Origin: a bacterium
Lineage (GTDB): Bacteria > Armatimonadota > JACIXR01
Assembly (NCBI GenBank): GCA_014360465.1
Contig: JACIXQ010000001.1
Coordinates: forward strand, 35,677-99,676
DNA length: 64,000 nt
Reading direction: 5' to 3'
Shown here piece by piece: positions 11,538-33,618 of this stretch. A program made the translations under genes and the position numbers. Position 1 is the stretch's first letter. Every line of letters starts with the position of its first letter. Under the pieces are notes generated by a model, which saw nothing but the letters and a program-made list of their open reading frames with translations, ran no database searches and was not told the DNA's origin.

Positions 11538-12263
11538 ATGCGAAGGAGTAATGGAAAAGGCGGTTTCACCTTGATAGAATTGCTCGTAGTGATTGCTATT
11601 ATTGCAATCCTTGCAGCAATTCTATTCCCTGTCTTTAGCCGAGCACGAGAGATGGCGCGGAAGTCACAATGTATGAGCAATATGAGGAACTTAGCTACCG
11701 CTGCCTTGATGTATGCCCAGGATTGGGACGAGCACTTCTTCCTCACAGCTGATGCTTTTTGTAATTCCCCTACTCCTGGTTGTTGGGCTGTGCAATATCT
11801 CAATCGCCACACTGGGATTTACCCCTATATCAAGAACGAGGCGATAATGATTTGCCCGAGCAAAGGAATGCCTCCTCTTGAGGTTCAAGACTGGAGCTAT
11901 GGTTGGAATAAATGCTTGGGTCCTGATTTCTGGTTCCCTCACGGAGTTTCCCTTGCCTCTATAGCCCAACCATCCAAAGTGCTGATGTTCGGTGAATGTC
12001 ATGTAGTATGGCATCCCATCTCCATGAGGAATGGTTGTTGTGGTTTTGCTAATCATCTTCCCGAGGAACCCGACCATCAGAGACATCTTGTTGCTTTCCG
12101 CCATAACGATACCGCGAACATCGCCTTTGTTGATGGGCATGTTAAGGCGTTCAAGAGGGAGCAGATTCCCGATTGGGATGGACAGATGGATGCGAGTGGC
12201 GTGCGCAACACTAATGTCTATATAGACCCCCTCTGCCGGAACGCCGAGGATTACGGGATGTAA
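11538..12263 (+). CDS. DUF1559 / prepilin-type N-terminal cleavage-methylation domain protein (H-X9-DG family)
   Basis: [34 protein letters not shown] prepilin leader and pilin-like helix. C-terminal [19 protein letters not shown]9-DG motif. AAGGAGGTG RBS. Confidence 0.8.
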
Positions 12264-22188: not shown

Positions 22189-22599
22189 TATCTCTCACCT
22201 TCCTCAGCAATAAATGTTCAAGAAAAATCTAAATCAAATTTTAATTTAACATAGACTAAAGTCAAACTATATTTTGACTGACCCTTTCCGACAGGTTTTT
22301 CGGTTGAAAGGATCTGGAAATATTCTTTCCCTTCTCCCTCTGCATCTCACTTCTCAGCGAATTAATCCAGATAGCCGATTATTTCGGTTAATGAAAAAAC
22401 GCTAAGCCAATAAACATAAGTGAATTCAATAAGAGTTTGATGCACTTTGATGGGGAGTCCAATATGTTATGGAATTCTACATTTCCGTCTTTCCTCGGTT
22501 TTCTTTTTTGTGTCTATCTGTTGTAGGGAATATACTTCTTGTAGAATTGAGGAAACAGTTCCTTTTTAAGTAAAATTATTTTTGAGGAAGAGCGCTTTC

Positions 22600-22627
22600 T
22601 TGACTTGCTTTGAAAATATGTTATAAT
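22600..22627 (+). promoter_or_regulatory. Sigma70 promoter with extended -10 for tRNA-Met
   Basis: TTGACT at 22600-22605, a 16-nt spacer, TGT-TATAAT at 22619-22627, and an AT-rich UP-like tract upstream. The tRNA 5' end lies 15 nt downstream of the -10. Confidence 0.5.
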
Positions 22628-22641
22628 ATACAGTGAAGGAC

Positions 22642-22718
<77 letters not shown>

Positions 22719-24251
22719 TTTTTTATAGTCTTTCCTTTCTCCCTTGTTGTCTATGATAGCGTTTTCGTCCCTTGAGGTTCCCTCTTCTCACATTTATTCA
22801 ACAAAGCCTAAAAAGTGGTTTTGTTGGGCTTTGTTGCATAATTCATCAAAAGGGAAACACCAAAAGGTAAACGGTAAGTTAACCTACTTTCCTTTATCAA
22901 AGTTGACAATTTAAGGATAATTTTTGCTTTGTTGAATAAAACCATTTCAAATTAAAGTTATAACTGCTTTCCTCATAAATTTAATATTCAGCTCAAATTT
23001 TGTTTATTCTCCGATTCATTACTATTATAGAGAAGAAACTTTCCGCTATTGCTCTATTACCATAGCCCAACTCTTGAACTCCTTTCCTTTAGCCATAGCG
23101 CAATCAATGATTATTATAAGCTCTCCGACATCCATTATTTAACAAAGCCACAATTGAACAAGATTCCCGAAGGTAGGGCAACTTTTGGCTCAATAGCAAA
23201 ATGGGAGAGGAATTTTTACGAAGCATTCAAAATAGAAGGATTGACCTCAAAGGGGAGGGATAAAATGGCGGTTAGAAACTTATTTTGAAAGAGTGCTAAT
23301 CTTCGTCCTTGCTTGCGATTATCCCTCACTAATTTGCGAGCGTAAATTAAATCTTAAATCTTCTTTGTGAATGTTTTGCTAATCCTTCCTAACGCGCCGA
23401 GCCCCAACGCGGACCGCTTCTCACGCCGGGAAGGCTGATTATTTTGTAGCCACGGCTTTTAGCCCAATTCCTTGCTGCTTTTTCCAACTTGCTATTGCCA
23501 CAATTCAGGAAATCCTCTGCCATTGATTCATCGCCAAACTTATGATTTGTTTAGGATTTGTCACGGGAGATAAAAAAGTGTTATTAAAGCAAAGGGTGAA
23601 TAGATACATAGGATAGAACCTGATATTGTGAGTAATTCTCTGGAACAAGTAAAAATAATAAACGAAGAAGCTTCAAAACAAATCTAAGGAGGAAAGCTCG
23701 TTCTATACCTTTTATTTGCACCCACTGTGGACGGAGGTAGGCAAGTAAAGGGGGAAATGGACACCACAAAAGGGAGCTGAGAGTTTCGGAGGGGGTGTAG
23801 AGGAAAAGATTGGGGGTTGCCACTGGCTGGATAAAGTTGCAAAAGATGGGCTGATAAGTCCGGGAGAAGCGAAAGGAAGACGAGCTAAATGTTGAATAAC
23901 GGCTCTCGATGAAATCTGCTAAGAGTTGATGGAAAAGGACAGTTTGCGTTTCGCATATATTAAAAGATACTTTCCGAAAGGGAAGGAGGAACATTAGGTC
24001 TTGAGAGGTTAGACAACGCGAGAACGGGAATGCTTTCCGGAAAAGGAAATAAGAACTTGATGAGGGAGGATATCTATGGGTACTATGATAAAAAATTTGA
24101 TATAATTTAAGATGACAAGTCCTAAACATAGGGAACTTTACCAAATAATTGCCTTAATATATCCTTTTAACTTGGATTTCATTAAAAAATTGCTTGCATA
24201 AAAAATTTCCTCGGGGTAATATTTTCATAAAATTTATGGAGGTGATTTGAT

Positions 24252-24797
24252 TTGAAGAAGTGCTGGGTTATTTTGCTTGTAGTTTTTTGTGTCGTTGGGC
24301 TTATGGCTCAGGAAGAAATAGGGCAACAGCTGAAGTATTCGGCGAAGATCGGGCTCTTCCGTCCCAGCGATTCCGACCTACGTGATGCCCTCGGTAGCAG
24401 TTGGTTCCTAATCGGGTTGGATGCAGAAAAGCAAATGGCACCCGACGCTTCCTGGGTATATTCCGTTGAATATCTTCACAAGTCGGGCAATGGTAATACA
24501 ATGACGGAGATCCCCCTACTTGTCACCTGGCGCAAGACACAGGTTTCTGCTGAACCTTCCATATTTGAGCAACCTGAGCCCCAATATTATCCATACTTGG
24601 GGGTAGGATTGGGACTCTATTATCTCAAGGCTGAAGAAGATAAGACAAGCGATAGCACCTGGAAGACGGGGTTCCATATCCTCGTAGGGGCACGTTTCAG
24701 TTCAAACCTGTTCGCCGAGCTACGCTGGAATACTATTGGCAAATGGCATGATACCGATTGCGGCGGCTACTCCCTGATGATGGGGGTGAGATTTTAA
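24252..24797 (+). CDS. Small outer-membrane beta-barrel protein (OmpW/OmpA-TM-like), hypothetical
   Basis: Signal peptide, alternating amphipathic strands, and a C-terminal ...MMGVRF aromatic terminus. TTG start with a GGAGGTGA RBS. Confidence 0.5.
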   Translation: MKKCWVILLVVFCVVGLMAQEEIGQQLKYSAKIGLFRPSDSDLRDALGSSWFLIGLDAEKQMAPDASWVYSVEYLHKSGNGNTMTEIPLLVTWRKTQVSAEPSIFEQPEPQYYPYLGVGLGLYYLKAEEDKTSDSTWKTGFHILVGARFSSNLFAELRWNTIGKWHDTDCGGYSLMMGVRF

Positions 24798-28926: not shown

Positions 28927-29322
28927 CTATTTCGGAGTAGGTCCTCCCATTGGACCTTTCATCATCCCGGACCCCATCATAGGCATACTGCCAGAAGGGC
29001 CACCACCGCCCATTGGACCTTTCATCATCCCGGGTCCCATCATAGGCATACCGCCAGAAGGGGCACCACCGCCCATTGGACCTTTCATCATCCCGGGTCC
29101 CATCATAGGCATACCACCCGCAGGGGCGTTACCTCCCATCGGACCTTTCATCATCCCGGGTCCCATCATAGGCATATTGCCTGACATTCCGGGCATTCCG
29201 GCGGTAGCTTGGGTGTTAGTAGGAGCAGGAGGCTTTGGAGCGAGCAAAACGACTGCGAGGGTCGCCAGCACACAGATGATGAAGAATATAGCGGAACCTA
29301 TCAGCATTTTATCCGTTTTCAT
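28927..29322 (-). CDS. Small exported or membrane-anchored Met/Gly/Pro-rich repeat protein; putative Cu(I)/Ag(I)-binding periplasmic protein
   Basis: N-terminal hydrophobic signal/anchor, then four copies of ...GGMPMMGPGMMKGPMGG(A/G)(P)S... About 30 Met residues fall within about 100 residues. Confidence 0.6.
   Translation of the reverse strand: MKTDKMLIGSAIFFIICVLATLAVVLLAPKPPAPTNTQATAGMPGMSGNMPMMGPGMMKGPMGGNAPAGGMPMMGPGMMKGPMGGGAPSGGMPMMGPGMMKGPMGGGGPSGSMPMMGSGMMKGPMGGPTPK
28941..29192. repeat. 63-bp direct tandem repeat (about 4 copies), in-frame coding repeat
   Basis: CATTGGACCTTTCATCATCCCGG recurs at 28948, 29011, 29074 and (as CATCGGACC...) 29137, an exact 63-nt (21-codon) period with a few substitutions. 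Confidence 0.8.
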
Positions 29323-29478
29323 TTATAAGGAACCTCCTTTCTTGATATTCAATTTTATTATATACATCGCAAGAATGCTGTCAAACATATATCATCTTGC
29401 AATTCAATGGTGTTCATTTATTCTCCTTCGACTTTTCCTTCTTGAAAAAAATTCCCAATTGCTTTATGCTTTTTACAA

Positions 29479-29878
29479 GATGGATTTATTAGAAAACAGG
29501 AGTAAATTGCTCTCAATCGCTAAAGAGGCGCAAGGAAATTCATTCGCTCCATATTCTGACTTCACCGTGGGGGCAGCGATACTCACAAGGAATGGTAAAA
29601 TCTTTTCGGGATGTAATATTGAGAATGTTTCTTTTGGACTAACGATATGCGCTGAGCGAGTGGCGCTTTTCAAGGCTGTATCTGAAGGGGAGAAGGATTT
29701 CCTCGCCTTAGCCATTTATGCTCCCAAATTAGTTACCCCCTGTGGAGCCTGCCTACAAGTTCTTTCCCAATTCGTCTCCGCTCCAGATGAATTCATAGTC
29801 ATTTCCTCCGATGGGACAGGCAGGATAGGGGAATGGACCCTTTCCCAGTTATTCCCTTTTCCTTTTACGAGTTTTTGA
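29479..29878 (+). CDS. cdd: Cytidine deaminase
   Basis: CAER and PCGACLQ zinc-binding motifs; about 132 aa. The ORF-track N-terminal extension back to 29177 is antisense to the Met-rich gene and is rejected. Confidence 0.85.
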
Positions 29879-32577: not shown

Positions 32578-32784
32578 TCAGTCGCTCCTTTCATCTTCTT
32601 CAACAAACATTTGTGGTATACCATCCACGAGAGGATATTCCCTCCCGCACTTTACACAGAAAAGAAGCTTTTCACCCTCATCCAAAACTATATCCCCATA
32701 ACAGGCAGGACAACGTAGGAGTTTAGTGAAGTGTTCTTCTAACCTCATCAGAATAAGTTTAGCAGGATTGACAAGGCAATACAA
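32578..32784 (-). CDS. Trm112-like (DUF343) small zinc-ribbon-like protein
   Basis: LLRCPACYGDIVLDEGEKLLFCVKCGREYPLVDGIPQMFVEE matches the Trm112/YcaR pattern (C..C...C..C, YP..DGIP). Confidence 0.6.
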   Translation of the reverse strand: MYCLVNPAKLILMRLEEHFTKLLRCPACYGDIVLDEGEKLLFCVKCGREYPLVDGIPQMFVEEDERSD

Positions 32785-32841: not shown

Positions 32842-33618
32842 CTATAGACCGAATATATCGTTTGGGCAGAAGCGAATTGTGCCTCCTTTGAAGCGGAACT
32901 TCAGCTGGGGAACGGAATACCATTTGGCGTGCCCATCGGCAAAGACAAGGTTTGAGCCACCTGTATGTCTGCTGAAACGTTTGATTGCTTCATCCAGATT
33001 ATGAATTACCGGTGGACAACAGGTAAGGACGGAAGGGTCGTTCCAGCCCGGACCGGGGTTGGTGAAAGATAGCCAAATGGAGATGCCTGTAGCCCCATCA
33101 TAGGCGGCGCCCAAAACAGCATGTCTGCCATCGGCTATCACCACCGTCTCCGCTGGGGCAGCTATGGCAGCAAGCTTTGCGGTGGAAGCATTGCCCCTTC
33201 CACACCAGTTAAGGGGGTTCATTATCCTCTCGTTATAGCCGTAATCAAGAGGATGTGAGTTTTGTGGTCTTCCCCATCGCTGTGGATAACAAATGCTGAC
33301 CCCGGTTCTTTCCGGGCTGAGGGAGCTGGGGCATTCAAAGACCTGCCAGTTCTTCGTATAAGGGGCAAGTTGTTCCCACCAGGCTAATCCTCCGTCGTCG
33401 TGTCCCCAACAGGGCCAGTGCCAGGTAGGAAGCACTTCATCCCAATCTTGCGCATACATCATCAACGCGGTTCCTATCTGTTTCGTGTTAGATAGGCAAG
33501 CGGATTTTCTCGCTTGTTCCCTGGCACGGGAAAAAACGGGAAAGAGAATTGCCGCCAGGATCGCGATAATCGCGATCACGACGAGCAATTCTATCAAAGT
33601 AAACCCCCTTCTTTTCAT
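32842..33618 (-). CDS. DUF1559 / prepilin-type N-terminal cleavage-methylation domain protein (H-X9-DG family)
   Basis: [34 protein letters not shown] leader/helix and the C-terminal [17 protein letters not shown] motif. Confidence 0.8.

Follow-up and report, generated by a model that had tools for sequence, protein, structure and literature searches.

What fills the 1533 bp (positions 22719-24251) between a tRNA-Met gene and the next conserved gene of this uncultured lineage, and does this DNA have a function of its own? The interval is the widest gene-free gap of the window, by which we mean the whole 64-kb stretch of DNA analyzed. A preliminary description, made from the letters alone, had noted a coding-poor stretch of about 1.5 kb downstream of tRNA-Met and had proposed either a large structured noncoding RNA (ncRNA) or a decayed element inserted at the tRNA. 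Here, we report a comparison of the gap with orthologous loci in relatives, together with homology searches, folding tests, and codon statistics. The stretch exists, although several details of that description do not hold, and none of its frames matches any protein family tested. With a probability of about 0.7, we read it as an intergenic spacer that is functional at both ends and has a nonfunctional middle of recently gained orphan DNA.

The tRNA-Met gene is preceded by a near-consensus promoter (TTGACT-16-TATAAT, 22600-22627; 11/12 matches in a promoter scan). We take the tRNA to be of the initiator type, with C1 facing U72 unpaired and three consecutive G-C pairs in the anticodon stem. 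The gene that begins at 24252 encodes a 181-amino-acid (aa) protein with a weak match to an outer-membrane beta-barrel family (here OMP) and with 13 homologs (54 to 96% identity). Between the two genes, no credible open reading frame (ORF) was found. Features of the interval are collected in Table 1.

Table 1. Features of the tRNA-Met/OMP interval (positions are those of the 64-kb window)
Feature	Position	Strand	Evidence or remark
tRNA-Met, read as initiator type, encoded CCA	22642..22718	+	ARAGORN; Rfam, 58 bits
Pyrimidine-rich 3' flank of tRNA	22719..22793	+	Composition, sequence reading
48-nt palindrome, formed by the 15-nt motif TTATTCAACAAAGCC in two inverted copies	22794..22841		Self-blast, E=3e-6
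Two more motif copies	22925-22939 (reverse), 23135-23149 (forward)		Within 22925..23149
Orphan DNA	23156..23563		Includes most of the 85-codon frame, the GC-rich 25-mer, and the left inverted-repeat arm
Purine-rich segment, 65.4% A+G	23564..24112	+	Composition; bracketed by inverted repeat
186-aa ORF (189-codon stop-free frame)	23584..24144	-	Spurious in our judgment, a dead relic at best
OMP promoter (A-tract, TTGCAT -35, TAATAT -10) and GGAGGTGA Shine-Dalgarno	24186..24251	+	11-locus alignment

Orthologous loci were taken as contigs encoding OMP homologs and PanD homologs (L numbers below). In L001/L011 (a 145-kb contig of a metagenome-assembled genome [MAG], OMP 81% identical), the order is PanD, tRNA-fMet, 270 bp, and OMP, and the same order and spacing were found in L002, an independent assembly of that organism. 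The distance from tRNA to OMP gene is 165 bp in L006 (OMP 78%). Other genes lie upstream of OMP in L004, L005, L007 to L010, L012, and L013, with spacers of 66 to 490 bp, and a different gene follows the tRNA in L016 (PanD 83% identical). The region is missing at the orthologous site in every relative below ~95% identity. Given these varied neighbors of both tRNA and OMP and the short spacers in relatives, the tRNA-fMet/OMP junction is, to judge from gene order, a place where synteny has broken repeatedly, and a spacer of 1.5 kb is specific to this strain cluster. A comparison of synteny had been suggested in the preliminary description as a way to recognize an insertion, and its outcome (165 to 270 bp in relatives versus 1533 bp here) supports that half of the inserted-element proposal; for the other half, an element, no support was found, as integrase or other protein remnants, a repeat of the tRNA 3' end, a target-site duplication, and a further copy of the DNA were all lacking in the sequences searched.

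Independent assemblies are interrupted by contig ends within the tRNA-Met gene itself: L014 and L015 stop at 22687, and L002 and L006 start at 22663. L015, otherwise a 99.97% match to the window, switches to a variant in its last bases, where A replaces G at 22685 (a single mismatch, 3 nt before the contig end). Together, the assembly breaks and the variant at the end of L015 fit a second initiator tRNA gene of slightly different sequence, so the tRNA is probably present more than once in this genome. A CT-rich 20-nt direct repeat (22320-22339 and 22725-22744; 18/20 matches, E 0.005 in self-blast) brackets a 405-bp unit made up of the tRNA promoter and tRNA gene. Duplication of the PanD-tRNA spacer was considered and rejected; its sole trace is this 20-mer, which is of low complexity and is not seen in L001 or L006.

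Both ends of the gap have counterparts in relatives. On the right, the OMP promoter and Shine-Dalgarno sequence align with those of all 11 orthologous OMP loci, and blastn similarity to L008 and L009 is limited to 24181-24245. As read from this alignment, the last ~65 bp is a functional OMP promoter and lies outside the anomaly, although the preliminary description had counted it in. On the left, the flank of the tRNA is probably ancestral spacer, because a CT-rich tract likewise follows the tRNA in L001, L006, and L016. The palindrome begins 75 nt past the tRNA (-19.3 kcal/mol, z -4.6), is the only significantly structured spot of 22719-24251, and was scored as terminator-like on the + strand (22797-22828) by a simple terminator scan.

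With the two single copies, the motif TTATTCAACAAAGCC occurs four times within 355 nt (22794-23149). When up to two mismatches are allowed, the 64 kb contains five matches against 0.22 expected, four of them in that interval; the remaining copy lies at 32596. The first 21 nt of the palindrome (22794-22814) are identical (21/21) to L012 5873-5893, which in that locus immediately precedes the A-tract and -35 of OMP, so that the 21-mer abuts the OMP promoter in L012 but lies 1.44 kb from it in the window. L005 and L008 have variants of the motif at this same place before the OMP promoter, and in L001 one copy lies after the tRNA. Positions of the motif in these relatives are 15-421 and 3663-3852 in L005 (where it forms a 19-bp palindrome, TTGTTGAATTATTCAACAA), 5755 and 9771 in L001, and 5035 in L008. 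Throughout, TTATTCAACAAAGCC (core TTATTCAACAA) was found with either orientation and nearly always within intergenic spacers of this lineage, often just upstream of the OMP promoter. Because of this position in relatives, the motif is probably a protein-binding or terminator-like element, and it is a candidate regulator-binding site. The 21-mer next to the OMP promoter in L012 and the conserved core promoter suggest that two ancestral ends have been pushed apart by unrelated DNA.

The DNA between these ends is uneven in composition. A purine-rich + strand had been reported for the whole stretch, which is true only of 23564-24112 (top 0.2% of 549-nt windows); two other segments are pyrimidine-rich, with purine contents of 41% (22719-23100) and 40% (23381-23563), and GC content is 29 to 33% at 22800-23100. 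The borders of the purine-rich segment coincide exactly with a 16-nt inverted repeat (23548-23563 and 24113-24128; 15/16 complementary), and an equally good repeat was found in 6% of shuffles of the region (self-blast E=0.17). Orphan DNA to the left of the segment (23156-23563) resembles nothing in any relative's locus. Individual sequences quoted in the preliminary description were recovered, namely, CTTTCC-GAAA-GGGAAG at 23970-23985 and the self-complementary TTTCCGGAAA at 24033-24042. Its "many" GNRA-closed hairpins came to two with a stem of at least 4 bp, versus 1.8 expected from dinucleotide shuffles, and its GC-rich island is present as a 25-mer (23393-23417) whose folding does not surpass that of shuffles (z +0.6 and +0.1).

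Only one other stretch of the window, 1291-1990, is equally purine-skewed on the + strand (up to 68.7%), because it lies inside a minus-strand gene (642-2912) for a large polytopic membrane protein rich in Phe, Leu, Ser, and Pro. Two further repeats of the window were recorded. A tandem repeat at 28946-29176 (63-nt unit, 3.7 copies, 92% matches) lies between a transaldolase gene and a cytidine deaminase ORF (29177-29878, 233 aa), whose N terminus is ~90 residues longer than in the 132- to 140-aa orthologs of L007 and L008; translated from the minus strand, the repeat would give a peptide rich in Gly, Met, and Pro. A 111-nt inverted similarity (11555-11665 and 33503-33613, 73%) exists between the 5' ends of the genes at 11538-12263 (+) and at 32842-33618 (-), which run in opposite directions and are presumably paralogs.

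A partial homolog of the region was found in one locus only, L003 (OMP protein 96% identical; DNA ~94% over 3.6 kb), where homology is confined to 23942-24251, the last ~310 bp. The right third of the purine-rich segment is common to both (88% identity, many indels). Identity of the orphan part (23942-24189) is 88.2% (179/203) with 46 indel columns, compared with 93.5% for the OMP promoter, 92.9% for the OMP-PRT spacer, 90.9% for the PanD-tRNA spacer (compared in L014), and 88.4 to 94.6% for third codon positions of the flanking genes. With the lowest identity of these compartments and with its indels, the orphan part is the fastest diverging of them and gives no sign of purifying selection, as estimated over ~200 aligned bases of one partial homolog. 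A 27-nt block (24071-24097) is invariant between the two sequences. The first 34 nt of L003 match 22561-22595 (31/35), immediately before the tRNA promoter, and continue straight into the equivalent of 23942. On the simplest reading, L003 is a variant which has lost the tRNA gene and 1.35 kb; an assembly-graph artifact at the contig end is the alternative. The deletion, if real, would make the region dispensable. L014, from the same sample as L003, retains the tRNA.

A large structured ncRNA is not supported. At the gathering threshold of Rfam release 15, the tRNA alone passed, and the Rfam scan that the preliminary description had suggested returned nothing else for the region even at E<=10 (22200-24400 searched, with no match inside the region and a 13-bit ARRPOF fragment at the OMP start). 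When 150-nt sliding windows were folded on both strands of 22700-24274 (z against shuffles), only the two containing the palindrome stood out (z -3.3 to -3.9); outside it, z ranged from -1.9 to +1.7, with no excess structure. These results, and the lack of the region at the orthologous site in relatives below ~95% identity, count against the proposal.

A more modest version of it, in which the + strand of ~23548-24128 yields a young, strain-level ncRNA (a purine-rich RNA of ~580 nt with a 16-bp terminal stem and a few internal hairpins, the GAAA-loop hairpin at 23970-23985 among them), we consider quite unlikely. The segment with its terminal arms does fold to z -3.1 on the + strand, which 0/100 shuffles equaled, but the 549-nt interior without the arms reaches only z -1.3 (13/100 shuffles fold at least equally well), and its local windows lie between -1.6 and +0.9. 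The fold signal therefore stems from the arms, and their closing stem is matched by 6% of shuffles; in L003, a 42-nt deletion disrupts the right arm, and the left arm is missing. A pairwise consensus fold of the part common to L003 gave z -2.6 on the + strand and -1.6 on the - strand (column shuffling, two sequences), with 43 pairs, none of them broken and two with double-sided, pair-keeping changes, and the invariant 27-nt block also favors an RNA. We give the consensus-fold signal little weight, because it comes from two sequences only with a mononucleotide-shuffle control and because transitions mostly keep polypyrimidine:polypurine pairs (pairing survives 3/4 of the time in such stems), so that "compensatory" changes say little. 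An RNA would also sit in the compartment of highest divergence, missing from all other relatives, and would have no Rfam match and no convincing promoter or terminator. The pyrimidine-rich strand of the same segment invites a coding explanation, in which 23584-24144 on the minus strand, and perhaps 23031-23285 on the plus strand, are dead or dying relics of one or more horizontally acquired genes; this, too, is unlikely. It would account for the 189-codon stop-free frame, a length attained in 0/2000 dinucleotide shuffles, and it agrees with the region being an insertion relative to relatives and with the pyrimidine-rich coding strands of this genome's membrane proteins. The composition-corrected codon score of the 186-aa ORF is -0.225, however, far outside all 38 genes of the window (each at least 0.026). 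A 79-aa ORF has an in-frame score of 0.119, within the range of real genes and far above its other two frames, but antisense shadow ORFs score as high. Good Shine-Dalgarno-linked starts are lacking for the 186-aa ORF, for the 79-aa ORF, and for the 85-codon open frame at 23031-23285. Three 1-nt indels shift the first 67 codons of the 189-codon frame in L003, the 42-nt deletion takes its start region, and amino acid changes are as frequent as expected without selection. Homologs were found neither for the 186-aa ORF in 5.8 billion protein clusters nor for the 85-codon frame among 1.84 billion representatives (exhaustive HMMER) or in a JGI metagenome scan; stop-to-stop frames of at least 45 aa (about the ten longest per library) gave nothing below E 0.04 in Pfam, PHROGs, and NCBIfam, and tblastx searches of every fetched locus and of the remainder of the window yielded matches at chance level only. 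No tested frame had a homolog that would reveal the conserved protein-coding gene or frameshifted pseudogene which the preliminary description had named as a possible refutation of its own view. On this evidence, we judge the 186-aa ORF to be spurious or at most a dead relic; the 189-codon frame may be all that remains of a foreign gene now dead.

The position next to a tRNA, the 16-nt inverted repeat bracketing a 549-nt unit, and the presence/absence of the region between close relatives would all suit a nonautonomous, MITE-like element or a scar left by an integrative element for which the tRNA gene served as attachment site, yet both are very improbable. The inverted repeat is of borderline significance, and its flanks, ATGATT and TAGGGA, are not duplicated, so that a target-site duplication is lacking. 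The attachment-site reading was rejected because the 20-mer of the tRNA 3' end, searched with up to three mismatches, was found only in the tRNA itself, with no att-like direct repeat. Pfam, PHROGs, and NCBIfam searches with the frames of the region revealed no integrase or transposase remnant. A second copy was found neither in the 64-kb window nor in ~129 kb of relatives' loci, blastn (distant mode) against plasmids and phages gave no match, and translated scans seeded with the 189-aa and 85-aa frames detected no relative in 185,579 species genomes, JGI metagenomes, or viral contigs. The translated scans of genome, viral, and metagenome contigs did not return even the source genome, and the collections appear to be without near relatives beyond the fetched loci (three species with this OMP among GTDB representatives, all MAGs). 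Either this strain or a ~95% relative is represented in the Logan runs SRR11866724 and SRR26201534. A replication origin or other DNA-level site, suggested by the AT-rich left part (GC 29 to 33%), the four-copy motif cluster, and the divergent genes on either side, is scarcely credible. The motif TTATTCAACA loosely resembles the DnaA box TTATCCACA but matches only 6/9 positions of the Escherichia coli DnaA-box consensus, and its occurrence upstream of OMP promoters and in other spacers of relatives fits a transcription-factor site better. Neither dnaA nor dnaN is present in the window. The oriC reading was rejected because GC skew stays positive on both sides throughout the window and does not change sign near 23 kb.

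Against these alternatives, the spacer reading brings together what was observed. The region is absent from relatives and has no homolog, its divergence is neutral-like, its folding shows no excess, and its ends are conserved. The left end would comprise the tRNA-fMet 3' flank and the palindromic cluster of the 15-nt motif, the right end would be the OMP core promoter, and the middle would be ~1.0 to 1.35 kb of orphan DNA gained in the recent ancestry of the strain, a range that hinges on whether the whole motif cluster counts as ancestral. The gain would have taken place at a junction of repeated synteny breaks, beside an apparently multicopy tRNA that could have been a recombination substrate, and the extra DNA would be filler in the course of decay, without a function of its own. 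That the DNA was gained here by insertion or illegitimate recombination, and not lost independently several times in other lineages, is an inference, as is its lack of function. Insertion is thus supported, and "inserted and decayed" holds only in a weak form, that of recent, unconstrained extra DNA. Three points speak against neutral filler, namely, the 189-codon frame, the consensus fold (z -2.6), and the inverted repeat exactly at the segment borders, and the 65% purine bias is without explanation under pure neutrality. Were 23548-24128 instead a young element near birth or death (a strain-specific, purine-rich RNA or a 186-codon minus-strand orphan ORF), which is decidedly unlikely, the stop-free frame (0/2000 shuffles) and the fold would be real and not compositional accidents.

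The outcome removes one candidate "large ncRNA," which in itself matters little. Orthologous loci from metagenome contigs resolved the gap as a recent, unconstrained gain, and the case shows how such gaps resolve. Two results would be useful to annotators of this uncultured lineage: the recurrent breakpoint at tRNA-fMet/OMP and the motif TTATTCAACAAAGCC, which, upstream of OMP across species, is a candidate regulator-binding site.

Among known systems, the region is like the large ncRNAs of Rfam (OLE, GOLLD, HEARO, ROOL, and raiA) in its size class of several hundred nucleotides and its intergenic location but differs from them in having no covariance-model match, no excess folding energy, and no conservation beyond a ~95% relative. 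With MITEs it shares a noncoding unit of ~580 bp with 16-nt terminal inverted repeats; unlike MITEs, it was single copy in the searches and has no target-site duplication, and its inverted repeat is borderline. As in tRNA-linked genomic islets, extra DNA that varies between close relatives lies immediately downstream of a tRNA, although here the tRNA 3' end has no att-like duplicate, an integrase remnant is lacking, and ~100 to 440 bp of what appears to be ancestral spacer separates the tRNA from the extra DNA. Compared with typical orphan DNA, 1 to 1.35 kb is long for a compact genome, and one third carries a 65% purine bias together with a stop-free antisense frame of unusual length. In other respects, it is like the lineage-specific orphan DNA or decayed pseudogene remnants of bacterial genomes: it has no coding capacity and no homologs, is confined to one strain cluster and missing at the orthologous site of sister species, lies at a synteny breakpoint, and changes by substitution and indel no more slowly than silent sites do.
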